Below are positions 35,533-56,106 of a stretch of 64,000 nt of DNA, piece after piece (the stretch's first letter is position 1; each line of letters begins with the position of its first letter). The DNA lies in contig NIVC01001101.1 in NCBI GenBank assembly GCA_002269645.1, forward strand, positions 310,001 through 374,000. Direction: 5' to 3'. The translations under genes were made by a program, and so were the position numbers. Under the pieces are notes generated by a model that saw only the letters and a program-made list of their open reading frames with translations, ran no database searches and was not told where the DNA came from. This DNA comes from Macrostomum lignano. Lineage: Eukaryota.

Positions 35533-36513
35533 AGCAACTATAGTGCTGGTGCCTCTCGTCAAACAGCTGCGCTTATTATAATTGGATTATTATTAATTAA
35601 TCTTCCTTTCGACAGTCACAATGGTTTCCAGAATGGATACCGGTACACCAAGAAAGCTCATCAAGTGAAGCAGTCACTGGAAGCCAAGAAGCGCTCGGTA
35701 ATCCGCCACTAAGAGTCACCCTAATCCCTCGTTAATCCATCACTAAGAGTCACCCTAATCCCTCGTTAACCTTTTGGTAAACAAACCAGATAACACCACA
35801 AGATAACATTCACTCAAACAAGATAACATGCCCCATTCCGGTTATGCAAAATGTTCTCTTGTATGAATCCTGTTTGCGTGACGAAATCTTACGTTTCCTT
35901 TTTTCAAACAAGATTCAAATAGGATTCGCTGACCAGGTAACAGTCGGGTAATTCATGCGAATCCTGCAGGGAAACATCGTGTTATCCTGTTTGTTATCTT
36001 GTTTGTTATCTTGTTTGTTATCCTGTCTGACAAACAGGATTCGCTGACCAGGTAACAGTCGGGTAATTCATGCAAAAAAATCCGCCATTGACATCAAATT
36101 TCGCAGTAAAGAAGCGTATAAAAGGTTGGTGCTTCAAGATTTTGTGAGTAGCATCTATTTAACAGCGGGGTGTTATTTGTAAGCTCCTTATAGACGGTAG
36201 CTCAACAGGAACGAGAACTTCTGGAGAGCAGCGTGGCATACGTCTGAGTTTCGGGAGTTCAGTTACAAGTAGACCTACTTATACTGTGAATGCCAATGGA
36301 TACTACTGAATTGGTGATCTGCTGCGAGCTGGTGTACTCGCTGGCGAGGTCGGACCTGCTGTACTCGGACGCGACTCTGACGGCAGTCGACGCGTGAGCC
36401 AGACGTTTGTAAGATCGGGTCGCGCGCACGGAAGGCGATTAATGAGACCACTTGCATTATATGCCGGCGCAATGGAACGACTCTGCATTATAAAGTTAAA
36501 TTAAATGGTGATG

Positions 36514-36994
36514 AGTAGTAGGGCGAATTATGATACTGCCGCACTAGCACTGGCGAGATAGGCGGCAATGCAAATGTACAGGGAAAAATACACTGCGGAG
36601 ATATGAGCCCTATCTCTGTGCATTGGGGACGGCTAAGCACTGCAGAGATATGAGCCCTATCTCTGTGCATTGGGGACGGCTAAGCACTGCAGAGATATGA
36701 GCCCTATCTCTGTGCATTGGGGACGGCTAAGCACTGCAGAGATATGAGCTCTATCTCTGTGCATTGGGGACGGCTAAGCACTGCAGAGATATGAGCTCTA
36801 TCTCTGTGCATTGGGGACGGCTAAGCACTGCAGAGATATGAGCTCTATCTCTGTGCATTGGGGACGGCTAAGCACTGCAGAGATATGAGCTCTATCTCTG
36901 TGCATTGGGGACGGCTAAGCACTGCAGAGATATGAGCTCTATCTCTGTGCATTGGGGACGGCTAAGCACTGCAGAGATATGAGCTCTATCTCTG
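36514..36994 (+). repeat. Polinton left TIR with 47-bp hairpin-containing tandem array (~9 units)
   Basis: Unit GCACTGCAGAGATATGAGC(C/T)CTATCTCTGTGCATTGGGGACGGCTAA. Confidence 0.93.
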
Positions 36995-37242
36995 CTTAAC
37001 ACTGGAGTGATAGGAGGAGAGGCGGCCTATCTCTTTACACTGGAGATGGTTAACACTGCAGAGATAGGAGGAGAGGCGGCCTATCTCTTTGCATTGGGGG
37101 TGGTTAACACTGCAGAGATAGGATGGAGTGGGTTAGCTTAGCTGAATGAATGTTAATCTATGTAATTGGAAATAATGTTTGCGAAAGAGCCAATCACAGA
37201 GCCCGGAGTGGGATGGGTGGTTTGGGGTGGTTCGGTCGAGGG

Positions 37243-37250
37243 TATATAAG
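37243..37250 (+). promoter_or_regulatory. TATA box (TATATAAG) upstream of PC4-like ORF
   Basis: ~105 bp before ATG 37355; same octamer precedes two other element ORFs. Confidence 0.55.
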
Positions 37251-37354
37251 CCCCGAAATTGACAAGAAAGAATTCTCAATTTTTCAAATCCAAAATTTCA
37301 TCCGAACTTTTCCTCAGCTTTTAACTTTTGTGAGTTTTCAATTGCGAAAGGAAA

Positions 37355-38122
37355 ATGGACATCTGTGAAGGCTATAAAACACAAGTCCAGGAGTTTGAAG
37401 GACAAAAATTTATCGCTATTCGCAAGTTTTACCGACACGGCAGCACGGCAAGTCTGAAGCCAGGCGTCCCAGGATTCAACCTGAATGTTCACCAATGGAA
37501 GAAATTGAAGGAGGTGAAACGCTCACTTGTGATTTCTGCACGCAACAACGAGCCCAAGGTCGTGAAACTCGGCTTCGATAAGTTTGTGGAAGTCAAAGGC
37601 GGCATCATTTGGCTCAAACGGCTGCCGGAAGATTGCTGCGAGGAGTTTTTGAGACGAAACGCCGTACCACTGACTCCGCCGCTGTGGCAGAAGCTCTGGA
37701 AAATCGCCTCCTGGATCGACGGTCAGCTGGTGGCTCCCTTGAGGAACTCAATGCAGTACGAGCTGGAGTCTGATGAGGAAGAGGAGGAAGAGGACAAGAA
37801 GCTCAAGTTGGAGGCTGACCAGGACACGAAGCCCATAATGGAGACTGATGAGGGCGGAGAGCATGCTGATGACGAGGACGTTAGCTCGCCCACAAGGCCG
37901 CGCATTGTGACTGAGCCAATCACATCCACACCGATACCTTTGGTTGATTCTGATGCTGGACTGCTTCCGCAGCGGGACACCAACCTTGAGGAAGATCCGG
38001 TGTGGTATCAGTTCAGGGCGCATGCAGCGGCTTCGACGGTGAGCAGCAGGAAGCGAAAGCTGCCATTTCAACTTCGTCGGCAGGACGCGATGAGGCTGCC
38101 CAATGTTCGCTTTGATAACTGA
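37355..38122 (+). CDS. Tandem PC4/Sub1-like (ssDNA-binding/coactivator) domain protein with acidic tail
   Basis: VQEFEGQKFIAIRKFY...KPG..GFNLNVHQWKKLKE aligns to PC4 VRDFKGKVLIDIREYW...KPGRKGISLNPEQWSQLKE; second degenerate repeat KLGFDKFVEV...LTPPLWQKL...ID; RKRK NLS-like. Confidence 0.8.
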   Translation: MDICEGYKTQVQEFEGQKFIAIRKFYRHGSTASLKPGVPGFNLNVHQWKKLKEVKRSLVISARNNEPKVVKLGFDKFVEVKGGIIWLKRLPEDCCEEFLRRNAVPLTPPLWQKLWKIASWIDGQLVAPLRNSMQYELESDEEEEEEDKKLKLEADQDTKPIMETDEGGEHADDEDVSSPTRPRIVTEPITSTPIPLVDSDAGLLPQRDTNLEEDPVWYQFRAHAAASTVSSRKRKLPFQLRRQDAMRLPNVRFDN

Positions 38123-38448
38123 ACAGCTAGAATGCTTTGAATGCATTGGACTAACTAAATTACTTTTAGCTTGCACATGATTATCCAGCCTATATCTGAC
38201 GGCACTATGCTGTTTTTTATCTCTGCTATTTCTGAAATGCTGGTGTGCGAGTGTTTTAGTGTTCGTTTTTATGGATTGTTTGCTTTCGGAAAATACACCG
38301 ACTGTTACGATGTTAGAGGTTTCAATCTGACAGTAATAAATTAATTTGCCACTCGTTTCTCTATCATTTAATTGGAATATAAATTTCTACTTAAGAAAAA
38401 ATACTGTACAGCTAGAGCAGGTGGATAGGCACGTATCTTGATAAACCC

Positions 38449-39519
38449 ATGATGGAGAAAATTTATTTGAAACCTGAGCAACCGGCTAGTTTTTCTTGTG
38501 CCTCAAAGTTGCTGCATGAAGTGAGGCAAAGAGGTGATCGAATATCTGCAAAGAGCATTGAGCAGTGGCTCAGCGAGCAGCCAGTGCACACTCTGCACAA
38601 GCCAGCTAGGAGGCGATATCCAAGGGCCCCAATCATAGTGCGCGCAATCGATGATCAGTGGGAACTTGACTTAGTGGAAATGATTCCATTTGCAAAGCAT
38701 AATAAAGGCTACAAATATATTCTCACATGCATTGACGTGCTCTCAAAATGTGCTTGGGCCAAGGCACTGAAAAATAAATCTGCTGCAGAAGTGAAGTCAG
38801 CATTCGAGAGCATACTGAGAAGTTCAAAGCGACAGCCGCGCACAGTTCGCACAGATCAGGGGAAGGAATTTATCAACTCCACTTTCCGTCAATACTGCAT
38901 TGACAGAGGGATTCTGGCTTTCCCAACTAACAGCGAGCAGAAGGCGGCTGTCATTGAGCGATGGAATCGGACTCTGAAAAGTAGAATGTGGCGCTACTTC
39001 ACCTACAAGAGCACACTGCACTGGCTTGATGTGCTGCCTAAGCTGGTAAAATCCTACAACAATACCTACCACAGAAGCATCAAAATGGCACCCACTAGTG
39101 TCTGCAAAGAGAATGAATCTGAAGTGTGGATGAACCTGTACGACGGAAAAGCAGTCGAGACTCTAGAAAAATTAAGGAAGCCTAAATTCGCTGAAAACCA
39201 GTCAGTGAGAATTTCCAATGCTCCACGGCTATTCAAAAAGGGATACAAAGCGAGCTGGAGTGAGGAAGTGTACACCGTGGTGAGCAGAGCCCCAAAACAT
39301 TATCCCTACATGTACAAGATTAAAGACATGCGGGGGCAAGAGATTCGAGGACTCTTCCATGAGCACGAGCTGCAGGCTGTCCCGGACTCACAGCGGCTGT
39401 ATGTGATTGAGAAGATCCTGAAAACGGAGAAGCGGAAGGGAAAAATTCGCTATCTGGTGAAATGAGCGGGCTACGACTCGACTGGCTGGGTGGATGAAAA
39501 AGACTTAAGAAAGGTTTAG
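38449..39519 (+). CDS. Polinton retroviral-like integrase with C-terminal chromodomain (TGA at 39463-39465)
   Basis: WELDLVEM, RTDQGKEF, IERWNRTLK (DDE intact); YVIEKIL...YLVK*AGY...WV...DL continues past the stop to TAG 39517-39519. Confidence 0.93.
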
Positions 39520-39556
39520 CTTTGGCACATCCCTCATCTTGAAGTTTATCATTATA

Positions 39557-40361
39557 ATGCGAACTATTTTGATTAACAGTGAGCATGCTGAAGGTACTCC
39601 TAGTGACTTTAATTTTTACCTGCCTTCACCTATTTACTTGGATCGAAATGTGGACTATGAGGCAGGTCTGGCTGAAATCCATCTGCCTGCTGCATGGTTC
39701 AATGTTGACGAGCCTTACTGCTTCACTGTCTCAGATGGAAGAGAGCATGAGGCCCTGGTTCTTCAACCCGGACGCTTTGCTAGAGTGGAGGAGCTGGTGG
39801 AGCGCCTGAATGAGCTGCTGGCCAACTCTGATTCGCTGTTCTTTGATGCAATGAGTGACAGGGAGTCTGAGATGGAGGCTGATGAGTCCGGCCTGATGGG
39901 GCGTAGTGGCAACAGGGAATTCGGTATGAAGTTCGGACAACTCACGAACTGTGGTGCACAACAACACTGCGAGAGCAGAGCTGTTTCTTCCATCTAGTAA
40001 AATTCTGCATTGGCTGGGATTTGGAAACCAGGCTGTGAAAATCCAGCCAGGGAGCCGCGTGTCCGAGCATTGCATTGGCTGCCCGCGCACCAGCTTAATC
40101 AATGTGCACTGCAGTATCGTTGAGTCAACTAATTGCAACTGGAGCTCCTTGTTGAGAACAGTTGGAATGAAAGCCGGCATTGAATGGGGCAACTATCAAA
40201 CAAAAATATTTAAGAAAACAATATTCTTCCCGATTCAACGAATCAGTCTTCTTCACAGCATTCGAGTTCAGCTGCGTGACATCTATGGTTGCCCACTGAT
40301 TGCACAGACTCACAGCCCTGTTCTGCTTACAGTTCAACTTCAGGAGAAACGCATTCAATGA
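39557..40361 (+). CDS. Minor capsid (penton-like) protein, frameshifted near 39900-39960
   Basis: N-terminal PSDFNFYLPSPIYL...YEAGLAEIHLP and C-terminal VHCSIVE...LLRTV...IRVQLRD..G.P...VLLTVQL match the Polinton mCP pattern. Confidence 0.78.
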
Positions 40362-40708
40362 ACTACCAGCAGCTAATCCAGCAATATTCGGGGGTGAGGA
40401 CAGGACACGAAAAGCCTGCACTCTATGGCTGTGGGAGCTTCCCAGGGATCATGACATACCAGCCTCCGCCAGCGGCTATATCATCATCATCAGCCTCGAC
40501 GCTTAGCAACGTCAGGCGCAAAAGAAATACTGAAGCAAGTCCGAAACGATTGAAGAAAAAGAAGGGCACCCGAAAGGCAACTGGTGGAAATCGCAGTAAG
40601 AGGTCGAGCAAGGCTAGTGGGAAAAAGCTTAAGAATAGGAAGACGAAAGCAAAGAAGAATAGAGCAGGCGGAGGAAAGCGAAAGCAAAAGTCAGCAAGAA
40701 AACTGTGA
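40358..40708 (+). CDS. Small Lys/Arg-rich protein, candidate virion core protein
   Basis: ATGA overlap with mCP stop; LYGCG motif; strongly basic C-terminal half. Confidence 0.6.
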   Translation: MNYQQLIQQYSGVRTGHEKPALYGCGSFPGIMTYQPPPAAISSSSASTLSNVRRKRNTEASPKRLKKKKGTRKATGGNRSKRSSKASGKKLKNRKTKAKKNRAGGGKRKQKSARKL

Positions 40709-40736
40709 AACGCGTGCTCGACTCTCTGTCATAGAC

Positions 40737-42015
40737 ATGGCTTACGGATTCAATCCCAGACTTGATTTATTTAAGACGCCCGTTCTACAAACCTGCATTG
40801 AAAAAGCTACTTATGTTGATATTCACCCAGTTAATTCCATTGTTGCAAACTCTCCCATTGAATTTGACTGCCACCAATCTGCCGATGAATACACAGATCT
40901 GCTGAATTCTTTTCTTTATATTCGCTGCCGCCTTGTGAGACTGGATGGGGGTTTGCTGAGGGAGGATGTTCGAGATGGAGATGGCATCATCACCGAGCGC
41001 AGAGACAGTGACGTGCACCCAGAAAATTTTGTTCTGTCTACAGCCTTCTCAGATGTAATTGTGAGCATTAACCAGCGAGTGGTGTCTGGTGGAGACCAGC
41101 TCTATCCCTACCATGCGTACTTCAAAGCACTAATGAGCTCATCCGATGCCCAGCAACTAAAACTTTACCCTGCTGGCTTCCTGGAGCCGAACTCGGCAGC
41201 TGAAGAGCACACGGAGAGCCACAGGGAATCCCAATGGATGGAGTATGCGGGGCCGCTCTTCAGCGATGTTTTCCAGTGCCCAGTGTTTCTGCTAAGCAAT
41301 CTGCACCTGCACATCAAACTGGTCCCAGCGATGGGGCCTTTGCCATCAGAACCCGAATGCAAACAACGCGGCATACCGAATGGAAATCTCTCACAGCATT
41401 CTGCATCTTCGCCGAGTCAAAGTGATGCCCCACATCAGCCTGGCCCATGAGCAGGGGCTGACAAACCAAAATGCACTGTATCCCATCGAGCGAACTGAAA
41501 TGCAGAACTTCATCCTACCCCAGGGCATTCAGTCAAAAACATTGAAGGATTCACTCATGGAAAATTGCCGAAGTTTATCATGCTGGCCTTCGTGAGCCAC
41601 CGAGCATTCAACGGTCATCATCACGCGAGCCCGTTCCAGTTCCAGAGCTTCAACCTTAGCCGATTGGCTCTAAAGAAAGGTGGGGAAACCGTGTGCCACG
41701 GCGCCTTCACACCTGAAAACAATTCCTTTGTAAGAGAATACTTGCACTACCTGAAAAGCTGTCAATCTGCAAGCCACACAACTCGGTTCCGTGGATCCCC
41801 TACCAGCTCTTCTCCAACAAAAACACGGTGTTTGCATTCGATCTCACACCAGAGGGAGCGGCTCTGTGGTACGGACAGAAGGAGGGCAACCTGCGGCTGG
41901 AGATTCGCTTCCAACAGGCTCTGAATGAAGCGGTGTCCTGATTGCTATGTGCCTGTATGACTCACTGATTGAGGTCACCAAGCACCGAGAGCTTTTGCTG
42001 GACTATTCATCTTAA
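40737..42015 (+). CDS. Major capsid protein (double jelly-roll, PY-type), several frameshifts (~41331, ~41535, ~41790, ~41940)
   Basis: LDLFKTP.LQT.IEK..YV.I.P...PIEF...Y.DL.NS.LY; LRRVKV; LPKFIMLAFV...AFNG...PF.F; FAFDLTP...GNLRLEIRF. Confidence 0.86.
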
Positions 42016-42020
42016 TTGAC

Positions 42021-42533
42021 ATGGATGCAATTCAACTACTTAATCTCGCCAGAAAATTTTTGCCTTACCAAAAATTTCTCATAGTTACTTTACATTTGCG
42101 CTATAAAAATTCTCTGCCCTTGAATGTAAAAAGAAAATTTAGATCATCAATTTCCTTTGAAAACAAGTTTGTTTTTGTCCTACTTCAGCACAATGGCTCA
42201 TTTGGTCACTGGGTGGTGTGCTATGTTGGGCAAGGAAATCGCATTGAGTTGTTCAACTCCCTCGGCTGGGAACCTGAAATTTTATCTTTGGTTTATAATT
42301 TGTTTCGAGAGATTAAAACAACTGGCTTTTGGCTCCGAAGCAATATAAACAGAGTTCAATGTGCTAACTCTAATAAATGCGGAGTGTTTTGCATCTATTT
42401 TGCTTATCAAAAGTTTCTGTTCAATCGGTCATTTGAGGGGATTTTGAAGCATTTGCATGCTAATGAAAAAAATCATTTGAATGATAGAATCTTACAGAGG
42501 TTTGAAGCCAACTTAAGAAAAAGATGTCCGTGA
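42021..42533 (+). CDS. Adenain-like cysteine (maturation) protease
   Basis: GHW, LFNSLG, VQ....KCG.FC.YF motifs in clan CE order. Confidence 0.86.
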   Translation: MDAIQLLNLARKFLPYQKFLIVTLHLRYKNSLPLNVKRKFRSSISFENKFVFVLLQHNGSFGHWVVCYVGQGNRIELFNSLGWEPEILSLVYNLFREIKTTGFWLRSNINRVQCANSNKCGVFCIYFAYQKFLFNRSFEGILKHLHANEKNHLNDRILQRFEANLRKRCP

Positions 42534-43294
42534 TTTCTAATATTTATGCATTAAACATGGGAGAAAAGCAAGTTTGCTACGATATCCGCCTCAGGCAGGG
42601 AAGCTGCATGATTGTCTGCGGGCCCACCAATGCAGGAAAAACAACCTTTGTCAAACACCTGATCCAGTACAGAGACGTCATGTTTGATGTGAAGCCTGGC
42701 AGAGTTCTGTGGTACTATGGGATCTCACAGGCAGGCCATGCAGAACTGAGCAGCCTAGGTGTGCAGCTGCGCCAGGGATTTCCCACCAACATCGAGGCAG
42801 CACTTAGGCCCAATGACCTGGTTGTTTTCGATGACTTAATAGAGGAAACTTCAAACTCTGCTTCAATGCGAAATTTTTTCACAGGAATCGCACATCACTT
42901 GCCGTGCTTTTTGGTGATGCTGACTCAGAATATATTTTTCAAGGGAAAAGAGTCGCGAACAATGAGCTTGAATGTAATGTATTTAGCTATCTTGAAAAAC
43001 CCCAGAGACCAGCTGCAGATTGCAGCACTGGGCAGGCAGTGCTTTACAGAGAAGCCCGGCTTTCTGCTGTCAGTGTTCAAGCACGTGACCGCGCAGGGCA
43101 GGGGAGCTACCTGTTCCTGATTTCACCCATCAACTCCCGATGAGCTGCGAGTGCGGGCCAGAATTTTGCCCAACCAGCGACCCCATCTTGTATTTGAAAG
43201 TGAAAGTGAAGCTTGTTTTTATCAGCTATTGTTTTCATCGCTATGGAAGTGCTTGATTCACATGCAAGTTTTTTGCGGTTCTTGCGTCACCTAA
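42524..43294 (+). CDS. Packaging ATPase (A32/FtsK-like), C-terminus disrupted near 43100-43130 (end approximate)
   Basis: Walker A GPTNAGKT, Walker B LVVFDDL, AHH...LTQN, SRT.SLN..Y....NPRD; distal HPSTPDELRVR. Confidence 0.92.
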
Positions 43295-43580
43295 ATATAC
43301 CGTGCGCTTCAAGCGGCTGTTGATAAAAAATTGTCCAAAAGAAGTGCGTTATTTTCTTGTCGAGGCCTGCCATAATCTCTTACAAAACAATCTATCGTTT
43401 TCGCTCGATGAAAAAGCTGTTCTTGCAAAGTCAAAAGAGATAATTCGAAAAATTACTCACAAAAGAAGAAAGACAGACTTGTTGAAGGCTGGCTTCATCA
43501 AAATACTCCCGATTCTGCTTAAGCTGGTAAAGAAGAAGAAGCAAAATGAACAAATTTTCAGAAATGGTTCTGATTCCTAA
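43243..43580 (+). CDS. Small Polinton hypothetical protein, one frameshift near 43300
   Basis: ATG 43243 frame shifts into VRFKRLL..C...LVEACHNLL...IRKI...RK..L.KAGFIKILPILLKLV; located between ATPase and next ORF. Confidence 0.55.
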
Positions 43581-44166
43581 AGCAGAGTATGAGATGTTGA
43601 TGCAGAATTTGAAGCCAAATGAGACTACCACTGAAGCTGACTTGAAGCAGGCTCAGAAGAAATGCGATGACATCTTGTATGCCGAGGATTGTCCAGAAGA
43701 TGTGAAAACCGCCATGTACCAAAGTGCAATGCAAAGTTTGCTGGCCAAGCGCAAGCACGCTGGAAAAGAAGGAGCACGCAATACTGAAGCCAAGTTGATG
43801 AAAACAGAGACACCCCAGATGAACACCTGGGAAGAGAAGATCAGCAAGTCGGTGCCACAGAAATTCAAAACCAGGGCTCGCAGTCTGTGGACGATCCTGT
43901 CCACCAATCCAGAGCTGATTCGAGTTTGTGAAAACGGGGAGGTGGAAATCGCAGGCACGTCAATCCCTTCCTCAAACATACTGGACTTGATTCAGCACGC
44001 AGTGAGGGATTCGCCATGTGAGCGTGAACCAGTTGGGTGGAACGAGTTCATCGATTTTCTGCAGCAGAAAAAGCTTAATGTTCCGCTTTCCGCTATTGGT
44101 AAATCAGTTAAGAAGAAAATGGCAACCAGCAGAGGGGTGAACTGGAGAAAGAACAGGAGAGTCTAG
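43546..44166 (+). CDS. Conserved Polinton hypothetical protein (206 aa)
   Basis: Intact ORF; GEVEIAGTSIPSSNILDLI...PVGWNEF...NVP pattern recalled from animal Polinton ORFs. Confidence 0.7.
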   Translation: MNKFSEMVLIPKAEYEMLMQNLKPNETTTEADLKQAQKKCDDILYAEDCPEDVKTAMYQSAMQSLLAKRKHAGKEGARNTEAKLMKTETPQMNTWEEKISKSVPQKFKTRARSLWTILSTNPELIRVCENGEVEIAGTSIPSSNILDLIQHAVRDSPCEREPVGWNEFIDFLQQKKLNVPLSAIGKSVKKKMATSRGVNWRKNRRV

Positions 44167-44217
44167 TCAAGGGGTACGGGAGCAACACAGCCTGGCTGAA
44201 ACTGCCTGCCAGAAAAG

Positions 44218-44225
44218 TATATAAG
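44218..44225 (+). promoter_or_regulatory. TATA box (TATATAAG) upstream of nuclease-like/TBP-like pair
   Basis: ~42 bp before ATG 44267. Confidence 0.5.
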
Positions 44226-44266
44226 AAGGTGGACTGACTCCGAAATTTTCGAAGGAAAGCTGCATC

Positions 44267-44700
44267 ATGAACTACATTGACTTCCAAGGATTCCGTGCAA
44301 CAGCACAAGCAAAAAATTTGTTGTGAAGGAGTTGGCAGTTGTTCAAATCAGAGCGGGGAGCTACCGCATTGCTCACCATGTGTACGCACCTCCGTATCCA
44401 TGGGAGAGAGTCTCACCTGACATGCGAGTTTACTACAGACAGCTATCTAAGAGTCTGCACCAGTTTAAGTGGAATGATGGAACCCGTCCGTACATGGAAC
44501 TGGCGGAAGACATTCTGAGCATTGCCAGTGGTCCGATCTGGTCAAATGGGGAAAGGAAGTCGATTTTCTGACTGAGCTGCTTGGAAGACAGGTTTATAAC
44601 CTAGAAGATTTGGGAGCACCCTCGACTGAAGATTCAGATACTGGCTGTGCAGTGAGAAATTCGTTGCTGCACTACAGTTGGCTTAAGCCAAAGTTCTGCA
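44267..44700 (+). CDS. DEDD/DnaQ-fold-like protein, two frameshifts (~44315, ~44550)
   Basis: Reconstructed MNYIDFQGF...FVVKELAV...H..APPYPW...H.F.WNDG..PY...VYNLEDLGAP...CAVRN. Confidence 0.55.
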
Positions 44701-44784
44701 TCAACTTAAGAAGCGAGCAGTGTCCGTGGCACACGAGCAGTAAAGTTGGCAGAAGCAGATTTGGTGAAGAAGTTGACGATCGAA

Positions 44785-45357
44785 ATGAGCCCACCAGCTA
44801 CAGCCCTAAGAGTGACCAATCTGGTTGGCGGAGTAGATCTGAGACTGGATGGTGGCAGGGGCGCTCAGCTGCCTCTACGGGAACTGGCTCTCAGCATGGC
44901 TCATGTGATCTACCGGCCCGTCTGGCCCCGGGTGCTCATCAAGCGGATGCGAAGTCCCAGAGTGACTCTGCTACTCTACCCTACTGGGCAACTGAGCATC
45001 TGCGGTGCCAAGACCCACGCAGACGCCAAAAGGGCTGCCCGTCGCTTCGTGGCTATGCTGCATCGGAGAGTGCCGGCTCAACTGCTGCCTCATCAAACAA
45101 TTTGTGTTCGAATTAAAACTATTACTGCTCATGGACAGCTCCCAGTTCATTCCGCACTTTCCTTATTAATGTTAAAATCAATTATCCCAAACGCCGAATA
45201 TGAACCAGAATCCTTTTCTGCTTTAATTTTCAATTTAAACTTTTGTAAATGTCTGCTTTTTCACAGCGGCTCTTTTGTTCTCAGTAGAGCTCGGTCCTTG
45301 AATCAGTTGCATACCGATAGCATGCGTCTACTCAATGTAGTTCTTTCCATTGAATAA
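44785..45357 (+). CDS. TATA-binding protein (TBP)-like protein, 190 aa, intact (possible TTG start at 44746)
   Basis: Two TBP repeats: VTNLVG..L...YRP.WP.VLI.R.RSPRVTLLLYPTGQL.I.GAKT..DA..AARRF and YEPESFSALIF...KCLLFHSGSFVL..A. Confidence 0.9.
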   Translation: MSPPATALRVTNLVGGVDLRLDGGRGAQLPLRELALSMAHVIYRPVWPRVLIKRMRSPRVTLLLYPTGQLSICGAKTHADAKRAARRFVAMLHRRVPAQLLPHQTICVRIKTITAHGQLPVHSALSLLMLKSIIPNAEYEPESFSALIFNLNFCKCLLFHSGSFVLSRARSLNQLHTDSMRLLNVVLSIE

Positions 45358-45938
45358 AAATAAAAGTCAAGTCAAGCAATTTGCCGCAAATATTTCAATG
45401 ATTAGTGAAAAGTGAATAAAAGGATAAACTTAGTATTCTTTACATTCATTTTCCCAGGCAGACAGCTATGGAACACTTCAAAAACGTATTTAGCCCATCA
45501 CCAAAAGTATCGCAAAACGCATATCAAATCCGAAAGTAAACAATACTACCATCGTTATAACAAACGATGTGCACCGAGAGAAGAGAAATAGAAAAGTGAT
45601 AGAGAAAATATGATTAAAACGCTGATTGAATTTACAGGAACAATTTATGTCAGATAAAAACCAAAAACACATTTTAAACAAGTAGTACACAAAGCAAACA
45701 AAAATGAATTAATATTGTATGAGCGCACTTGCCACAGCTTTATAAAAAGTAAAACTTAAATTGATATCAATATTTCACGCCGCAAAAACAAATTGACAGC
45801 TAAATCTAGCGCAATTAGCCAAGCATACAAATTTGTAAAAGTTACTACATGCAAGTCACTACATTTAAAACAGAATTTGGCAATTTAAACAACTCTAAAA
45901 GCAAGAAAAAGTACTAAACAGTCTGTTAAACACCCGCA

Positions 45939-48900
45939 CTAGACCAGTCGGATGCGCTTCAGCTGATCGTGGGATGCGGGCGTCAGCGCATAGTGTCCGT
46001 AGGGCAGGCTTCGATTACTGCTAAGCCACACTCGCTTATCCTCCCACACCGATAGGCTTCTTTTCTCCATGACCGACGTGAAGATTTCGTGTTTCTTGGA
46101 AACAATCGCTGTCATGGCAACCATCTGCTCTTGCTTGGACTCGAACGCGTCGACATAGTTCGCATGCGAAATTTGCTGTCTTACTACTGACTGCTTCACG
46201 CCTTTGGCAGTTTTCTTGATCTTTGCACTCGAATTCTCGGCAGGGAGAAACGAATAAAGTTTTGGACGCAAAAGAATCCACTCCTGGTAAATTCCACCAG
46301 CAGATTCATCTTTAACGCAGCCCAAGCTTTCCTTTTAACTCTTCAGAGAAATGCGGATGGTCTCGAGAAATAGTTGGATGTGTCAAGTATTTTTCCTCTC
46401 TAAGCTTCGGGATTACCGTCCGATGTTAAATCACGATTCTTGAAAGCTAGAAAAATGAGTCAGTATCACCTCCGCAAAAGCATCATGTCTCTGGAACCGT
46501 CTGAATGACAGAACAGCGGTCGGAGCCTGTCATATAGTGGCTGTACATGGCCATCTTAGAGAGATCGAGAACTGCCTGGCCAACGAAAATGGCCTTGTCA
46601 GCGTGACTTTATCTTTTTTGAGCTGAAAAATGCTCACGACTCATTGATAATCGAGAATGCGGCACAGTTTGGTCGAGAGGCGCAAGTTTCTGCTTGAGTC
46701 TGGTTAGTGCAAATTCGAACATCGCATCTTTTTCGAACGTTCTCCATAGTTTTTCCAAAGAGAGAATTGTTTTTCAATTTGTAAAAATCCTTAGCAAACT
46801 CGGAAGTTGCCAAAGCTCTTTTTCATTGTTGCTGGCAATGTACGGCGCGAAAATATTTTCCTGCTTGAACGAAATCATTTTTTGACGCACTTGATCCGCA
46901 TTCCGTGTTGCAGGTAAAATCTTAAAACGGTGCTGTGAACTACGTAAGAAATCCTTGTCGGTACAGGTGAGTAGAAGCTTCTCCGTTGCTTGAAACTTAG
47001 CTTCAGCATTGCCAGTTCGCTGTTCAGCAATCTCTTTCCATAGTTCGGCCATGTACGGCGAGAATTGATCTGGCTGTGGTTTTGATTTTTCAGGTGCAAA
47101 CGGTAACTCCTGAGTCGAATCGTGAATCTCAGCTGGGTATTCTAGATCGAGTTGAACAAGGTAGGCGATCTCGGCTTCTGGATTGAGTGACAGAAACCGA
47201 TTGGAGTCCCAGAACTGGATTTTCCTGTTCCGGTACCCACCTGAATTCCCTGCATGGAAGCGGAAGGCGAAGGGCAAAGCCATACAAGTTGTTCATATCG
47301 ATCGGCATGAGGCTTACACTCTCTTGCTGATCATCATAACTGGCAAGCTAGGATTATTACTTTGACGCAAATGCACATTAATGAAGGACATGCCTCCTCG
47401 TATTCGCTTCTCAACAGATGATACATGTCAGCATCAGTCAGCTGCTCTAGAACCACTCCAGTCGACTTTAGAGCTGAGTCGTAAGACAAAACCAGGAGTA
47501 GTAAAGTAGTGTACCGGATCCAATCCGTCTCCTTTCAGACTGGCCTGTCGGAATGTCTCAAAAATGGTCAGCCAGCTGCCTTACATCCATTTCAAGATAG
47601 CGAGCATATAATCCTTCAAACTTTTGCATTGAAATGCCGCCCATGCCGCTCTTGCTCTATTGTAGTCGTCGTCGGAAATTCCCCTATCGGAAAGTCGATT
47701 AAAAAAAGCATCTTTAGGTGGCAAAACCGACTGCTCGAGAATCTCAAATCCTGTGAGGTAATCATATGGGAAAATCCCTTTTTTTCGAAGTAGCTCTCTT
47801 GAAAGATGTGGTCTTGACTCAAGCATTTGCATTGTCAGCTTGCATTCAGCTTCGGGAAGATTAGCAAACAAATTGGACAAACTTCCCTTCAAAAAGCAGA
47901 GCGAGTCGATGAACTGAATTGTAAACATGATTGGCACAACTTTTCCGTTCTTTACGTAACTTGCAACAGGGAATTCCGCCCTTAGTGACAAGTATCGCTC
48001 GGATGATTGCGGAACAACACTAAGTTTCCAATTTTTCATGCTCCCAAGCGCAGTGGAAAGTAGAAGATGAAGGTCGTAGCCGCCTAAGTTGTGAAAAACC
48101 AGGGGCAGAAACCGGCGTCGGAGCTGTGCTCGCAGGTTGCATTCTTGACATGCTGCACCTTTGTACTGTCCATTTAAATGATCGTGGTCAAAATGTTTAT
48201 CTGTAGAACTTTTAAAGTTCTTCTTGCAGTAGTGACATACCTCAGCAGAATTGAAATCATCCATGACGGTCGCGGATGATCGGTCAGCCGGCTGGTGGCT
48301 ATGCTTCTGGTTCCAGTGAAATATATCCTGAGCCAGGCTTTCAAGAGATTTGAGAAAACCAAGGATACACTCATCAGGGTCCGCATTGCAAAAGACCTTG
48401 TACATGTCTCCTTCTGGCCTAAGCGGAGGTCCTGTCATGCCTTCACGAGGCACTGCAAGAAAAGCTGCTGCACATGGTTCATGCTTTGAGATCAGGTTAG
48501 CAGGGTCTGTGTTCGCTCGCAAAATGGCTTCCAGGTCGGCATAGGCAACGAATGGTGGACTGACAGTGTTTTGACAGTTTCGGAACTTTATTTCATTCTG
48601 TCCTGGAACTGGAAGCGTTTCTTTGACAGGATTTTCTGCAGTAATGCTGCATTCGTTCCTGTGCTCTTGAAGCCTCTCGTTGCTATAAAATGATGTTAAA
48701 CATTTCGTGCACCACTTCCTCATGGCGGGACCATTACGACTGTTCATTAACCTGTCAAAATTAGTAATTGCACACCAGTGCTCCGATCCGTAGCTGTCTT
48801 TAACTAGCAAAAGCATGAGGTGTCTTCGGTCATCTGACTCATGCTTGCGGCGACGGAGAAGAGTCACACTGCCCTGCTGCCAAGAGAACGCAGAAATGCA

Positions 48901-49577
48901 AATTCCTGGATTGTTAGACTCGACGCGATCGATATCAGCGACACTCACTGGCATGGAGATTTCTGCAAAGTCCAGCTCACGCAACCATTCATCGTAAGAG
49001 GATATTCTGTTGGGCGATTTCTGAACTTTCGGATCGGCGCTGTGCAGTGCAGCGAGACAGGCGTACAGGAAACAGTCTTTGCCTGTGCTCGGTGGATTGA
49101 TAACAGCCTTTTTGTTCTTCAAACTGGCAGGAAGATTGAATCTAACGGCTCTGCCCTGGCGAAATCGAATTGGATTGTACCTGGCAAGGTTGATGTCTAG
49201 AAAATTAATTTGTTTAATTGTCCAGCCACTGCCGTTCGTATTAATCATACTACAGATCCTCTCCAACTCCTGCTCCTGCTCAATCAACCAGTTGTTTAAA
49301 CGGCCTGCTTCACCACCTAGGTCTAGGGCCTGCATTTTACAGCTTATCCATCTGTCCTCTTCGGCAAGCATCTCCCCATCTCTTATTCGGACCATTCGAA
49401 TATTCGCCTTTAGCTGAACTTTGTAATGATGTCTTGAAATTCTTTGCTGAACTGCCTCAATAATTTTGTCTCCAGCTTGGACAAAAAATTCTGACGGAAG
49501 CGTGTCTGGGTGACTCGATCTGAGCCTCAGTATTTCCAGTGATTGATCATAGGCTTGGGCAACTCTGCTGAAGCTGA
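45939..49577 (-). CDS. Protein-primed family B DNA polymerase (pPolB) with EndoVII-like insert, many frameshifts in 46330-47580
   Basis: GSGW; CF....AALH; YADLE; CHYC...DHDH.NG.Y.G..C..CN; FHNLGGYD; FIDS; KGIFPYDY; IRGG; DMNNLYG; KNNSLFGKTMENVRKR; GDTDS; RPKLY; AKGV; DKR...SLPYGHY. Confidence 0.93.
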
Positions 49578-49818
49578 CTGTTGAACCTGGTTTGTGGTTT
49601 TAGGATAATATTTTTGTTTTTTGCTGCCTATAGTTTCAAATATCAAAGATACTAAACTAAACGTCTGTACCCAAGCATACATGTACAACCCTACCGGTAT
49701 AAAGTCTTTTATCTCCCCTTCTCCCATTCTTTGGACTAAAATTTTAGACTGCATAATATACATCGCATTGATAAGAAAATTTTTAAGTAAGTTGAAAAGG
49801 ATAAATAAAGGCACTTAC

Positions 49819-50254
49819 CTTGGTGTGCATCAGTCACCGACTCGCTGTTGGCTGCTGACTCGCTGCTGGCTGCTGACTCGCTGCTGGCTGCTGACTCGCT
49901 GCTGGCTGCTGACTCGCTGCTGGCTGCTGACTCGCTGCTGGCTGCTGACTCGCTGCTGGCTGCTGACTCGCTGCTGGCTGCCGACTCGCTGCTGGCTGCC
50001 GACTCGCTGCTGGCTGCCGACTCGCTGCTGGCTGCTGACTCGCTGCTGACGTCATGGTCCACCCAAGGGTGGTCATACTCGATCCACGAGTGGTCATCCT
50101 CCATCCACGAGTGGCCATTCTCCATCCACGAGTGGTCATTCTCCATCCATGAGTGGTCATTCTCCATCCATGAGTGGTCATTCTCCATCCATGAGTGGTC
50201 ATTCTCCATCCATGAGTGGTCATTCTCCTGCTCCATCCAGGAGTGCTCAACCAT
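49819..50254 (-). CDS. Repeat-rich exon (MENDHSW and SSESAA repeats), probable 5' exon of pPolB
   Basis: AG|GTAAGT donor at 49818; phase-1 acceptors at 49578 or 49587 join in frame with pPolB. Confidence 0.5.
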
Positions 50255-51141
50255 AGAAAAGGCAAGCAGTTAAAAGCTGACAGTGTTTACTGGCTGCAAC
50301 TGAGTGTCATAAGCAACTGGGAGTGAATATTGGAAATCTTTTTCGTAAGTCTTTATTGCTGCAATACTGGTACAATATCCACACTTACAAGCTAGTAGAT
50401 GCTGGTTATATTTTTTTGGTTCTCCCTTAAGCTAGCTCTCTGCATGCATATTCTATTGATCCCTATTCGTAAAAGTTCGTTTCTATTTGCCTCCTACGCA
50501 GACTCAATCGGTAAAAAATGCAAAATGAAGCCAATAGTTAATTAACAAACCAATCACCGAGTGGAAAAATGCTGACATTATATATATATATATATTTTTT
50601 TAAAAATTATCGAATTCACATGGTGCAATCATAGTCAATAAACAATGCATGGAACAATGAATTACAAATACAGACGAGAGTTTAGAAGCAGAAATATAGC
50701 TGAAAAGTTCAATAATTAAAGAATGAGGAAACACCGCGTCAAAGCAGTAGAAAGAAAATTATACCTAATCAATCGCACCAAGCATACGAAACCATCACCA
50801 ATTTATTGAAAGTATGTTATGTTGATTTTAATTTGTTAAATTCAACTGTATAATGTTTCACCTACTTTTCAAATAATTTTTTTTACCTCGGATACCAAAA
50901 AAATATTGGTTGCCACTACGAGCTACGAGCTTTTTTTAAAACTAATTTGGAAATGAAAACTGAAAACTTATAAGCAAGATTCCTAGAAGCGAATACAGAG
51001 TTATGAGATGATCAAATCATTAATTAATGTACCTACTTCAACTTTAAAAAGCTAGTTGAAATAAAGTTTTAGCAATAATTGCAATAAATGGGTAGATTTC
51101 TCACTCCACACAGAAAGCAAAAAAGTACAAAAATTGCTTAG

Positions 51142-52464
51142 TCACAGCGGCACAATTCTAATACGATTTTCGAAAATCGTTACCTCGTACCCAGCCCCGC
51201 CGACAGGAGGCAGAAAGAAGGCAACTCCAGCTGGCACGGGTGGAGTTTCGGATTGAGAAGCTGGAATTGTAGAGGCTGCAGCTGGGGCGGCTGGAGCAGC
51301 TGGGGCAGCCAGAGCAGCTGGGGCGGCTGGAGCAGCTGGGGCGGCCAGAGCAGCTGGGGCGGCCAGAGCAGCTGGGGCGGCCAGAGCAGCTGGGGCGGCT
51401 GGAGCAGCTGGGGCGGCCAGAGCAGCTGGGGCGGACAGAGCAGCTGGGGCGGCCAGAGCAGCTGGGGCGGCCAGAGCAGCTGGGGCGGCTGGAGCAGCTG
51501 GGGCGGCCGGAGCAGCTGGGGCGGACAGAGCAGCTGGGGCGGCCAGAGCAGCTGGGGCGGCCAGAGCAGCTGGGGCGGCCAGAGCAGCTGGGGCGGCTGG
51601 AGCTGCAGGTGGCACAATTGCATTATGCGACTCATTGTCGCTGCCCTCCTCTTCTAGGATTTCCATTTCGTGGTCGTCTTCAATTAGATGAAGTTGTTTT
51701 CCAGCAATCACCGGAACCGAAGAGACAGGTTGCTGCTGCTGCTGACCAGCGTTGAATTCCCTGAGGAACTGATCCAGGACATCTTCCTCTATGAAGTTTA
51801 TGACAGCAGCAGCCTCGACTCCAGCAGCCTCGACTCCAGCAGCCTCGACTCCAGCAGCCTCGACTCCAGCAGCCTCGACTCCAGCAGCCTCGACTCCAGC
51901 AGCCTCGACTCCAGCAGCCTCGACTCCAGCAGCCTCGACTCCAGCAGCCTCGACTCCAGCAGCCTCGACTCCAGCAGCCTCGACTCCAGCAGCCTCGACT
52001 CCAGCAGCCTCGACTCCAGCAGCCTCGACTCCAGCAGCCTCGACTCCAGCAGACAGCTCAACTTCAAATTCTGCAGCTGCTGAAGACCCGCTTGGCCTCA
52101 TCCTCTTCAATGTAGAGTCAATTACTTGACTCAAGTGAGCTGATAGCAGACTCCTGCTGGCTCCCTTTTTCTGCTGGATCTTCTTTTCTCTCTCGTTGCT
52201 CTTTTTGATGGCGCGGATTACTTTCCAGCGGTTACTTTCTTGCTTTTTCTTGTCATCGCTGACGATCCTGTGTCCTCGATGATATGCTGGAATTTTTCCC
52301 TCCTGCAGAGCTTCGACGGTGCCGCACTGGTCGCATGCCAACCAGCATGAGACCAGACAGTTCTCATTCTCGTGGTGTCTTGGGGACACGCCTCCAAGCA
52401 GGCACACTTCGCAGCTTATACAGACCTCATAGAGGTCTCTATGACAACTTTTAAAAGTTTTCAT
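51142..52464 (-). CDS. 440-aa protein with Cys/His-rich N-terminus and AAGVE / AAPAAL repeat tracts
   Basis: Intact ORF with ATG; CxxCxxC, C...CxxC, H..H; TATATAAG on the same strand ~103 bp upstream. Confidence 0.65.
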   Translation of the reverse strand: MKTFKSCHRDLYEVCISCEVCLLGGVSPRHHENENCLVSCWLACDQCGTVEALQEGKIPAYHRGHRIVSDDKKKQESNRWKVIRAIKKSNEREKKIQQKKGASRSLLSAHLSQVIDSTLKRMRPSGSSAAAEFEVELSAGVEAAGVEAAGVEAAGVEAAGVEAAGVEAAGVEAAGVEAAGVEAAGVEAAGVEAAGVEAAGVEAAGVEAAGVEAAGVEAAAVINFIEEDVLDQFLREFNAGQQQQQPVSSVPVIAGKQLHLIEDDHEMEILEEEGSDNESHNAIVPPAAPAAPAALAAPAALAAPAALAAPAALSAPAAPAAPAAPAAPAALAAPAALAAPAALSAPAALAAPAAPAAPAALAAPAALAAPAALAAPAAPAAPAALAAPAAPAAPAAASTIPASQSETPPVPAGVAFFLPPVGGAGYEVTIFENRIRIVPL

Positions 52465-52566
52465 TTTGAAAGAGAAAGAGTTGTTTTTTAGAAGTAGTAA
52501 GGTTTTTAAAAATCCTTTTATACAATTTTGTTTTTGTCTATTTGTTTATTTGTACTTGCGTGGCTG

Positions 52567-52574
52567 CTTATATA
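52567..52574 (-). promoter_or_regulatory. TATA box (TATATAAG) upstream of 440-aa ORF
   Basis: CTTATATA on plus strand, mirror position to the left-end box. Confidence 0.5.
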
Positions 52575-52924
52575 GTAATTTGTACATGCATGCCCTCTCC
52601 TTATCATATCGTATATGAACATCCAGCCATGCTCAGGTAATAATTACTTTACCGTTATAGAGGCCACCGGCTGTAATTAGTGTATCCCCCCGTCCCCTTA
52701 TCCAGGTAAGCAACACCAGCCGTCCTCTGTGCAGTTGTAAAACTTTATAACCTTACCCTAACACAGAGCACAGAGATTGGCCACCCCTCTTATCTCTGCA
52801 ATGTTTAGCCGTTCCCAATGCACAGAGATAGGATCCTCTCCGCAGTGTATTTTTCCTATATCCTTTTTGCCGCCTATCTCGCCAGTGCTAGTGCGGCAGT
52901 ATCATGAATCGCCTCTATCTCCGC

Positions 52925-53287
52925 AGTGCTTAGCCGTCCCCAATGCACAGAGATAGAGCTCATATCTCTGCAGTGCCTAGCCGTCCCCAATGCACAGAGA
53001 TAGAGCTCATATCTCTGCAGTGCTTAGCCGTCCCCAATGCACAGAGATAGAGCTCATATCTCTGCAGTGCTTAGCCGTCCCCAATGCACAGAGATAGAGC
53101 TCATATCTCTGCAGTGCTTAGCCGTCCCCAATGCACAGAGATAGGGCTCATATCTCTGCAGTGCTTAGCCGTCCCCAATGCACAGAGATAGGGCTCATAT
53201 CTCCGCAGTGTATTTTTCCCTGTACATTTGCATTGCCGCCTATCTCGCCAGTGCTAGTGCGGCAGTATCATAATTCGCCCTACTACT
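52925..53287 (-). repeat. Polinton right TIR with 47-bp array (~6 units)
   Basis: Reverse complement of 36514-~36876, nearly identical. Confidence 0.93.
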
Positions 53288-56106
53288 GTGATGAAAGGCA
53301 GTTTCTGAGAAAAATACAAAATTATAAAGAAACAGTAATGTGCATACACATTCGATTGTCTCGCTCTAACAGACAGCGACGGTTCGCCGACAGGCAATGC
53401 CATATCATACGACTCACTAGTAATGTCAGCTGTGTCGATAGAATGTCATTCGTAGCATAGTCGTCATCCGGAAACAACTGGCTTTCGTTGATCGGCTGCT
53501 GGTAGACCAGAGACGAAGTGAATGGCGTGCCATCTGATGCGCCGGCTCGCGCGGCGATGGCTTTGTCGCGCTGTTGCGTCCACGAAATGCCGACTGCGCT
53601 GGAAACTCTTATCTGATTGTCTTCGCAATCCCGTGTGCCAACGGTAATATCCAACCGACTTGGCGTTGCAGATGTCGCTAGTGCGATGGACGATCGTCCA
53701 ACGGCGTCATCAACTGCGTCGTTCGAAGCAGTGACACCCTCCGAAAACAAGTGGCTGACAAGATTAAGATTACCGACACTCATGGCATGGTCTGTAACGA
53801 CTACTCTCTTGACTTGTTCGAGGATTTATTAACCCTCGGCAAGATTACCGACACTACTCTCTTGACTTGATCTGCTCACGGCTGGTGCAACTGCAAACGC
53901 CTTCGACAAACCAATGGAGCATGCACCGAAAAAAATCGGATTAGCGTCTATCTTAATAGGAAAGCTGCTTTGCATACTGGGCCAGTTGGAGCTATTTGGA
54001 ACCATGCCACAGTCTCCGTCTAGACACCTAGCTGTGCCAAACAATATGGCTGGCTGACTCATGCTTCTAAGCGTCAAAGCCCGTTGACACACTAAGCAGC
54101 TGTGATAGACTACATGCCAGTGGTAGTCAAACCTCTCGCACACAATCAGCGCGCAACAATTTTTCAACAGCCTCACATTACGGACGCTACAGTGCCTCCG
54201 AAAAGCAGATCAACTCACCTTGCAATTTCGAGGCTTTATTACCCCTCGGATTAGATTGACCCGCGTAGTCAAATAAAAGTGACTACTCTTAGCAGCTGCC
54301 TTGAGCCACAACAGACGCGAGGATTGATAACCCCTCGTAGGTCAGCATTTTCAGTCAACTGCTCAACTCTGATTCATCGGTTGAAGCGGGGTTCCATTAT
54401 CCCTCGCTGGTGGCCATACACCAACACTGCAGACGCTTTAGACAACCCAATGGAGCATGCTCTAGCAAGAGCTAGAATAACGTCTGTCGTAAAAAAGAAA
54501 CAGAAAGAAACAGAAAGAAAGAGACTACATGCCATTGGGAGTCAAACCTCTCCGGCACAATAAGAATGCAATAGTTATGGCACTTTATGGCACTTTAACA
54601 TATGACATTACCATATGGCACTTTATCCCTCGCAGGTCAGCATAGCAGCTGCCTTGAGCCACAACAGACGGAAGACCAGTCTTATCCGTAACTTCATCGA
54701 GATTCGGGTCAATGGGAGCTGATCCCTGTGGATTTGCCAGATCACTTGGTCTAGATCACAGAGGAATTCCGACTGAACCCCCAAAATCTCATCCAGAACA
54801 TTTTCAATTGGAAAACCTGAAATTTGGGTCTACAATCAGAACTTAGAAGTGTTCCGGGTGAAAAAATTTTGGAAAATGCAGCCGGAACAGCTTTCCTTTT
54901 TCCCGAACTTTTGCAGGATCACATTTTCCGGAAAAAAGGGACTATTCCGGGCCGAAAATGCTGATCGGGGCCTTCACTTGGAAATCAATTAATAAATCGG
55001 GCCCGGATCACGAAATTCTGGGTGAAAAGTACAACGGGTTCTTACAGACCGGATAACACAAAGGCATCTTGATTGAAATCTTTTTCCATTATCTGCTTTG
55101 CAAACCAGATTCGCATCATGTTATCCGGCAAATTTCAGATTCACACAGGTTTCTTACAAACCAGATAACACACAGTTATCTTTATTTAAATCTTGTACTG
55201 TTATCTGTTTTTCAAACAAAATTCGCACCATTTTATCCTGTAAAATTCCGATTCAAACAAGATTCGATCAACCAAGATAACAGAGAATTATCTGGTGGCG
55301 AATCTTGTACTGTTATCTGTTTTTCAAACAAGATTCGCGCCATGTTATCCTGTAAAATTCAGATAACTCACCAGATAACAGTCAAACAAGAAAACAAAAA
55401 ATTATCTGGTGGTGAATCTTGTCATGTAATCTGATTTCTAAGCAAGATTCGGGCCACTTTATCTGGTGAAATTCAGATAACTCACCAGATAACAGGCAAA
55501 CCAGATAACACTAAAATTACCTGGTGACGAATCTGATGGTTTCACCAGTTTCGCACCTCAAACAAGGAAATCGGTAGTGAATCTGACAAGATTCGAAAAT
55601 TATCTTGTGGTGTTATCTGTTTTATTTATCAGAAGGAATCCACCACTAAGTATCACCCTAATCCCTCGTTAGTCCACCAGCAATGTTTGCGCAATGCACA
55701 CTCGCTGCTAGGCCAGACCCGCTCCAACCCCCACCCACACGTAGCAGTAAATTTTGAGATTAGAAATGATAAATAAGCGAATAAGCAGTGAAATAGAAAT
55801 TATGTGACAGCGGAAGCTGCAGATGAGAAATAAAATAATCAAACAGTCCGTGGCAAGGCCGTGAAAGAAGCTTTCACTCATTTATTAATTATGACACAGA
55901 GCCGTCATCGGACACGAACTAAAAACGTCACCGACAAATATTTTATTGTCTGTTGAATATTTCAACTTGTTTTTTTCCTAGAAATTTATTATTATTATTT
56001 GTCACCTGTAAAACGGAATTTCACGAAATGGAACATAAAATGGAGCGGCAAAAGTCGCGAGTTCGTCATGCCGTACCGATACAGCGAGTTGCTAGTTTTG
56101 CCTCCG

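Follow-up and report, generated by a model that had tools for sequence, protein, structure and literature searches.

Why would a mobile element carry a TBP of its own in a host that already has a TBP, a TRF-like gene and PC4? This question is raised by a 64,000-nucleotide (nt) stretch of the flatworm Macrostomum lignano (assembly GCA_002269645.1, contig NIVC01001101.1, positions 310,001 to 374,000 of the forward strand; hereafter the window), in which a Polinton/Maverick element encodes both a TBP-like and a PC4-like protein. An initial annotation of the locus proposed that these two proteins act jointly on one shared octamer as a self-contained transcription module. Our analysis points elsewhere. 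The element contains two classes of conserved motif, canonical TATA boxes (class 1) and a second box, YHTAAGAA (class 2), and its TBP-like protein has kept the TBP fold, is under selection, and has changed residues on the surface that faces DNA. On balance, we think it probable that these features make up an early/late cascade on the host's own RNA polymerase II (Pol II), with host TBP using the TATA boxes early and element TBP using the TAAG boxes late. That the motifs are start signals, which protein reads each class, and when, are things that we infer from the patterns described here. The element and its class-1 boxes are listed first (ORF, open reading frame).

36514..53287, no strand: Polinton/Maverick, 16.8 kb, with AGTAGT...ACTACT ends; several ORFs of this copy are broken by frameshifts or stops
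37243..37250 (+): TATATAAG, class-1 box (canonical TATA) of the PC4-like gene; CCAAT and reverse CACCC-type words lie upstream
44218..44227 (+): composite middle box TATATAAGAA, a canonical TATA at 44218 overlapping a class-2 word at 44220
52567..52574 (-): canonical TATA box of the 440-amino-acid ORF, class 1
52515..52522 (-): second canonical TATA, TATAAAAG, at -58 of the 440-amino-acid ORF
38378..38383 (+): TATAAA assigned to the integrase in the initial annotation; unconserved and probably chance

The three TATATAAG octamers on which the initial annotation was built lie where it placed them, within the Polinton at 37243 (+), 44218 (+) and 52567-52574 (-), and their ends are 104, 42 and 102 nt from the ATGs at 37355, 44268 and 52464. 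It had allowed that they might be chance occurrences, given that the octamer also lies in the host repeat unit. The host copies are real (5097, 16526 and 28206, with a further one at 7641-7648 (-) missing from its list), and none of these four has an ATG ORF of more than 37 amino acids within 200 nt. Nonetheless, three octamers in the element, against 0.16-0.74 expected under Markov models, argue against chance; 92.8 kb of mostly flanking host DNA contains a single octamer.

Conservation across copies, the stronger evidence and a check that the initial annotation had proposed, was examined for both end boxes. Copies of the element were taken from the stretches around 20 TBP matches (16 of family 1, which includes the window, and 4 of family 2), and the promoter tests used the window and nine family-1 copies retaining the gene in question, leaving out near-duplicates and copies truncated or interrupted at the gene. 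The 170-nt upstream regions were sorted into groups, between which identity is about the shuffled level. Amid this unalignable upstream DNA the boxes are kept: 9/10 copies, representing all six mutually unalignable groups, have TATAWAWR at -70..-112 of the PC4 ATG, and 8/10 copies, from four of five groups, have it at -56..-115 of the 440-amino-acid ORF, the fifth group carrying GATATAAG. These patterns support the view that selection has treated the end boxes as it would Pol II promoters. A CACCC-type word, resembling Sp/KLF sites, stands 10-40 nt upstream of the PC4 TATA in six of the eight family-1 copies checked, in either orientation, and also in short elements described below (window 37190-37230; L033, L039, L040, L045, L114).

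The middle box is more variable and sits in the coding tail of the upstream ORF. Among 16 informative family-1 sequences it is exactly TATATAAG in eight, TATTTAAG in six, TATAAAAG in one and TACATAAG in one; because 15/16 contain the class-2 word, we regard it as a composite site. All three families that we distinguish have a canonical TATA ahead of the TBP gene or of the block to which it belongs: in the window's group it precedes the block, in family 2 it stands 53-55 nt upstream of TBP, and in family 3 it is located within the left end, ahead of the TBP block. This placement fits an early class.

The initial annotation had also placed the integrase in the TATA class. The TATAAA at 38378 is indeed there in the sequence, although it occurs in only 4/10 copies with unremarkable shuffle probabilities (0.06-0.28), and we rejected it as a promoter. 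The conserved signal of this gene is instead a second box that the annotation missed, and which recurs through the plus-strand gene cassette.

38390..38397 (+): CTTAAGAA box before the integrase, non-coding
39504..39511 (+): CTTAAGAA box before the presumed minor capsid ORF (ATG 39557)
40209..40216 (+): TTTAAGAA, at -149 of the basic ORF 40358-40708; the weakest site
40628..40635 (+): CTTAAGAA box before the presumed major capsid ORF (ATG 40737)
42512..42519 (+): CTTAAGAA box before the packaging-type ATPase
44705..44712 (+): CTTAAGAA box 80 nt before the TBP ATG, a candidate feedback site

The integrase ATG has YTTAAGAA at -39..-62 in 10/10 copies, in non-coding and unalignable DNA; the word occurs in 0/20 of the upstream regions of PC4 and the 440-amino-acid ORF. 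Two of the copies have a duplicated integrase 5′ end (L037:1286-1464 and L038:1824-2007, oriented), and in these the box stands ahead of the partial copy and the start of the full-length gene has none.

The broader pattern, YHTAAGAA, stands before 8/10 plus-strand cassette genes in each of four family-1 copies (7/10 in the window copy), and elsewhere in the 7.1 kb of those four copies there are no sense and at most one antisense site. Recoded controls that preserve proteins and codon usage average 0.8-1.0, and the highest value in 1000 is 4. Two genes, the protease and the second of two conserved ORFs of no known family, are box-less and start at or just past the upstream stop; the first of those two ORFs has a CTTAAGAA box in other copies that is absent in the window. 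In family 2, YHTAAGAA precedes 4/8 genes (P=0.008). Family 3 has TATAAG[CT] before 5/8 cassette genes and none elsewhere, with a recoded maximum of 3 in 500, the pattern having likewise been chosen after inspection; there too the protease and an overlapped ORF are without it. The flanks of the box vary by family, as does its first base, which is C in 6/8 sites of one family-1 copy (CTTAAGAA and CCTAAGAA both begin with C) and T in 5/5 of family 3. The amino acids and the reading phase under the box vary among sites, and the TTTAAGAA site could have arisen as a by-product of coding (recoding probability 0.26-0.32).

What might read this second box? A candidate is encoded by the element itself.

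44785..45357 (+): divergent, intronless TBP-like gene, 190 amino acids; AATAAA at 45353 and 45359

The initial annotation was right that the element has TBP-like and PC4-like genes, and both are under selection. The TBP-like product is predicted to form a full two-repeat saddle (pLDDT 87.5, TM ~0.8 to solved TBPs), and its dN/dS of 0.07-0.18, where estimable, indicates purifying selection. It has at least 152 matches in genome G000, from 100% to ~72% identity (family 1), with a group at 38% (family 2). Family 3 was found through polymerase matches; its TBP-like ORF is recognized by NCBIfam (6.6e-8), and hhalign gives only 4% to family 1. A profile search yields a small clade of seven representatives, well above cellular TBPs. 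Metagenome proteins P0002-4, P0009, P0010 and P0155 belong to the clade; no loci related to the TBP alignment were found in the viral or metagenome contigs searched. The element protein is 26-30% identical to host TBP and is not a recent capture from this host.

Contact residues were compared in yeast numbering, taken from PMC12529657 Table 1; the equivalents of V203 and L205 were dropped, a two-residue gap making them ambiguous. Relative to host TBP, N69, V71, L114, F190, F207, E186 and E188 are kept in 17/17 clade sequences, and F99, F116, V122, T124, N159, V161 and P191 are changed in all 17, specifically F99>P, F116>Y, N159>T and P191>S/T/N. The protein thus does not have the full set expected for canonical TATA binding (four intercalating Phe, N69/N159, P191), and judged from sequence its DNA-facing surface is rewired. 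The acidic C-terminal stirrup of TBP serves TFIIB, and there the acidic pair E186 and E188 is intact (17/17), with L189 variable. In the cellular protein, Pro191 admits no base but T at box position 1, and the wild type accepts G at position 3 and also at position 6 (PMC1636458). Pro191 is absent in families 1 and 2, whose boxes are often C-first; family 3 appears to retain Phe-Pro, and its five boxes are T-first. The Pro191 rule therefore fits both the C-first boxes of Pro191-less family 1 and the T-first boxes of family 3.

Two further observations concern the gene itself. The frame of the upstream ORF stays open for ~110-130 codons over the N-terminal half of TBP in families 1 and 2; we rejected a dual-coding role for it, since selection follows the TBP frame. 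In addition, the TBP of L031 is 98-99% identical to those of L035 and L038 in its N-terminal half and 53-62% in its C-terminal half, a mosaic switch within the gene.

window 44785-45120; L042:9401-9732; L048:9392-9780 (oriented): frame overlap on the N-terminal half of TBP

Taken together, these observations suggest the following sequence of events. Host TBP would start the class-1 genes, that is, the PC4-like gene, the 440-amino-acid ORF and the block holding the TBP gene. Element TBP would then direct host Pol II to the YHTAAGAA boxes of the integrase, packaging and presumed capsid genes, and the box-less protease and second conserved ORF would be translated from the upstream message through stop-start coupling. 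The family-1 box ahead of the TBP gene would supply feedback; across family 1 the TBP ATG has a CTTAAGAA box 65-83 nt ahead of it, so such a loop may exist. The element encodes neither an RNA polymerase nor TFIIB and is therefore not self-contained. The idea of an early-gene regulon survives in part, in the end boxes, the selection on TBP and PC4 and the TATA before the TBP block; what falls away is an octamer private to the element and a TBP+PC4 module.

A number of points weigh against this cascade. The YHTAAGAA motif and the -160..-30 interval were chosen on the data that were scored, and by the fixed family-1 pattern family 3 scores 0/8, bare TAAG giving 7/8 (P=0.044). The motif is common in host DNA (23 in 92.8 kb), so it is position and not count that constitutes evidence. 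Coding tails hold most of the class-2 sites, recoding probabilities for two sites are 0.12-0.32, and one homologous family-2 site is only 10-12 nt from the next ATG. Among the class-1 boxes, the middle box is the non-canonical TATTTAAG in 6/16 sequences, and the first exon of the window copy's polymerase has no TATAWAWR within 200 nt. The copies are recombinant mosaics, which leaves the upstream groups short of full independence. Three families underlie the Pro191 pattern, the third of them weakly aligned; the identities of the capsid genes are presumed; and the tolerance of G at positions 3 and 6 means that host TBP might read part of class 2.

This last point leads to a different reading, in which the two classes are genuine promoters used alike by host TBP/TFIID, and element TBP has some other role, for example as a terminal DNA-binding protein or as a decoy for TFIIB or TBP inhibitors. 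Two of the four intercalating Phe and N159 are changed in element TBP, as in TBP paralogues that lost TATA binding. The TATAAG variants of families 2 and 3 are near TATA, and host TBP tolerates G at position 6 (PMC1636458). We still think this reading unlikely: the C-first CTTAAGAA and CCTAAGAA are disfavored by the Pro191 of normal TBP (PMC1636458), the changed residues are fixed in 17 clade sequences that include two families 38% identical, and the box flanks differ between families. It is also worth considering that class 2 may act at the level of RNA or coding, as a signal for translation re-initiation or processing, or as a by-product of Leu-Arg/Lys-Lys codons near gene ends. Most sites do occupy the final codons of the gene upstream, one taking in its stop codon; all are on the sense strand, and one family-2 site is 10-12 nt from the ATG. 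The integrase site, however, is non-coding and downstream of a polyadenylation signal, recoding controls exclude a codon by-product, amino acids and phase vary, and the tightly coupled genes are exactly those without a box, all of which make this the least probable of the readings considered here.

The proposal of the initial annotation, that element TBP and PC4 act jointly on TATATAAG as an early regulon or feedback loop, has in its favor that the octamer lies ahead of PC4, the TBP block and the 440-amino-acid ORF, that both genes occur in families 1 and 2, and that the herpesvirus protein BcRF1 binds TATA and TATT alike in vitro (PMC4893493), which means that a viral TBP can bind canonical boxes. 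Against this, TATATAAG is a canonical TATA readable by host TBP, and it stands before PC4 in 4/4 elements that combine polymerase and PC4; no TBP match was found in the scanned stretches of these elements, where a very divergent TBP could escape detection. That the octamer is a private target of element factors is thus not supported. Conversely, family 3 has a TBP and its stretches gave no PC4 match. On these scans each gene occurs without the other, which does not support a single module, and we regard joint action as decidedly unlikely, although short polymerase+PC4 elements could borrow a TBP in trans.

The PC4-like protein itself offers a further argument, in that its domain is predicted to have a fused form of the Pur-alpha type.

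37355..38122 (+): PC4-like gene, N-terminal 130 amino acids a predicted double PC4 domain, followed by an acidic tail; AATAAA at 38335

The first repeat matches PC4 by sequence (Pfam 1.6e-7), as expected of PC4/Sub1, and the protein is under selection. In place of the single-repeat homodimer, the 130-residue domain models as two repeats in one chain, with Pur-alpha as the best structural match of the model (Z 10.4, rmsd 3.8, 117 aligned residues). A sequence test for an internal repeat was negative (P=0.46), the second repeat being visible in the model only. When element TBP and the PC4 domain were modelled together, the prediction scored 0.02, with a mark of 0.34. Within the PC4-like superfamily (PC4/Sub1, Pur-alpha, Whirly, MRP and a phage T5 PC4 homologue), whose folds act in both replication and transcription (PMC7549692), the first repeat thus resembles PC4 and the whole domain Pur-alpha; the Polinton protein differs from the PC4 homodimer in its two-repeat chain and in its acidic tail at the C-terminus, and its DNA binding is putative. 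In family 2, PC4 and the polymerase share a terminal-repeat promoter word, TATATAAT. PC4 accompanies the polymerase in elements where no TBP was detected, and so tracks the polymerase more closely than it tracks TBP; it is likely a class-1, single-stranded-DNA-binding helper of the polymerase rather than a partner of element TBP.

The rest of the element places this gene set in a familiar context.

36508..36513 (+): target-site duplication GTGATG, 6 bp; second copy at 53288-53293
36514..36994 (+): left terminal inverted repeat (TIR) and 47-bp array; right arm at 52916-53287
38449..39465 (+): retroviral-type integrase (Pfam rve 2.8e-13)
ATG 39557 (+): presumed minor capsid ORF, broken in the window; identity from size and position
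40358-40708 (+): basic ORF
ATG 40737 (+): presumed major capsid ORF, broken in the window; 427 amino acids in another copy; unnamed homologues at 27-78%
42021..42533 (+): adenain-type protease (Peptidase_C5), box-less, starting a few bases after the upstream stop
42557-43120 (+): packaging-type ATPase, P-loop, weak Pox_A32 match
43244..44166 (+): two conserved ORFs, no family found; the second overlaps the stop of the first
44268..44780 (+): conserved ORF under purifying selection, broken in the window; its frame continues over the N-terminal half of TBP
45939..49599 (-): protein-primed family B polymerase region, broken in the window
49587..49818 (-): likely GT-AG intron; by coordinates its removal would join a repeat-rich ORF (ATG 50254) in frame with the polymerase
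51142..52464 (-): 440-amino-acid ORF, with a Cys-rich N-terminus, low-complexity middle and conserved C-terminus

In common with Mavericks, Polintons and adintoviruses (PMC8097293, PMC8502044), the element has (AGT)2-ended TIRs and a 6-bp target-site duplication (the defining features after PMC8097293), a retroviral-type integrase, a packaging ATPase, an adenain protease and a protein-primed family B polymerase, the last broken in the window and matching PF03175 in related copies. Pfam matches of window proteins also include Peptidase_C5 (9.6e-5) and TBP (2e-24), and a protein 99% identical is on record from Macrostomum lignano. The capsid candidates have the right size and place and conserved homologues, but no named match to a jelly-roll protein. 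The initial annotation had described the terminal boxes as mirrored just inside the TIR arrays; they are roughly mirrored (729 and 713 nt from the element ends), but lie outside the inverted-repeat arms, 249 and 342 nt inside the 47-bp arrays. Its label of "nuclease" for the ORF at 44268..44780 found no match in Pfam, PHROGs, NCBIfam or the PDB, and family searches were likewise negative for the 440-amino-acid ORF, the two conserved ORFs and the presumed capsids. The 440-amino-acid ORF, whose Cys pattern and C-terminal stretch are kept at ~30% identity across lineages, is a candidate transcriptional activator. The polymerase appears to be spliced here, and vertebrate Mavericks have been described as intronless. 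A loose end in one contig of one run fits the intron, a hint of Pol II transcription and splicing; the assembled contigs of seven runs extend through promoters and are uninformative on starts, and no junction linking the middle-box ORF with TBP was seen among them. In other lineages the position of the repeat-rich first exon is taken by unrelated repeat-rich ORFs.

It is informative to compare the element with systems in which a TBP-like factor serves stage-specific promoters. As in the herpesviruses (KSHV ORF24, EBV BcRF1, HCMV UL87, from Kaposi's sarcoma-associated herpesvirus, Epstein-Barr virus and human cytomegalovirus; PMC12529657, PMC4893493), a viral TBP-fold protein has the equivalents of V122, T124 and V161 substituted, an altered TATA-like box precedes structural genes (presumed ones in the Polinton) and a canonical TATA precedes others, and host Pol II is used, in the Polinton by prediction. 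There are obvious differences. The Polinton protein is a bare 190-residue core without Pol II-binding or extra DNA-binding domains, it keeps the acidic pair on the TFIIB side, and its F99, F116, N159 and P191 are changed where ORF24 keeps them (PMC12529657). Its box is YHTAAGAA and not the TATT late box, and neither a large multidomain viral TBP nor the five partners of the six-protein herpesvirus complex were identified. By analogy, then, the element would work like the herpesvirus viral-TBP late switch, and is not a member of it. With cellular TBP/TRF2 (PF00352; host copies at G000:C70 and C350), it shares the saddle fold, N69, F190, F207, E186 and E188; it differs in its fixed DNA-facing changes and in having no N-terminal extension. 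Poxviruses and Polintons belong to the same virus kingdom. The poxvirus factor VITF-3 (PMC12917281), TBP/TFIIB-like, serves stage-specific promoters; the RNA polymerase and the TFIIB-like partner with which it works are both viral, and the Polinton encodes neither.

Term searches of the available text of PMC10748475, PMC12220804, PMC8097293 and bioRxiv 2026.06.19.733378 returned no promoter or TBP account, and the portions examined of Polinton papers including PMC8502044 contain no promoter classes, TBP function or PC4 gene; a gene label "TBP" stands in one figure legend on MELD viruses (PMC8502044, section 3.4). We found no literature on Polinton promoter classes in a search outside which most subscription papers fell.

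Related elements and the surrounding DNA show further diversity. Short elements of ~9 kb with AGTAGT ends carry a polymerase and a divergently oriented PC4-like gene, and the stretches tested gave no capsid or integrase match. A further, AT-rich Polinton-like family (L111 and L128; G000:C506, C4948) has a different gene order and TATTTAA/TATAAA words before several genes, with no TBP match in L110-L111 or L128. Just outside the Polinton, the window holds a host tandem array (1-34034) of ~11.4-11.7 kb units made of 34-, 17-, 53- and 33-bp minisatellites, and a Gypsy-like integrase C-terminal fragment (34325-34975 (-); weak SH3_Tf2-1 match).

G000:C173:199365-208630 (L114, L126, L115), also C24, C41 and C558: short elements

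If the cascade is correct, a wider proposal may be entertained, one that we hold more tentatively and put somewhat short of an even chance: animal Polintons may run a herpesvirus-style switch on a minimal kit of one bare, respecified TBP, host TFIIB and Pol II, and a family-specific TAAG box, with self-amplification, co-evolution of TBP and box (loss of Pro191 with C at position 1), and a private late-promoter code for each family within one nucleus. A two-class promoter grammar together with an element TBP argues for staged expression that ends in particle genes, and so bears on how Mavericks/Polintons express their genes and on whether a virus-like cycle exists. If true, it would represent an independent origin of viral TBP respecification beside those of herpesviruses and large DNA viruses, and would supply natural TBP variants of altered sequence preference. 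That the host is a laboratory flatworm makes the two-class promoter reading directly testable.

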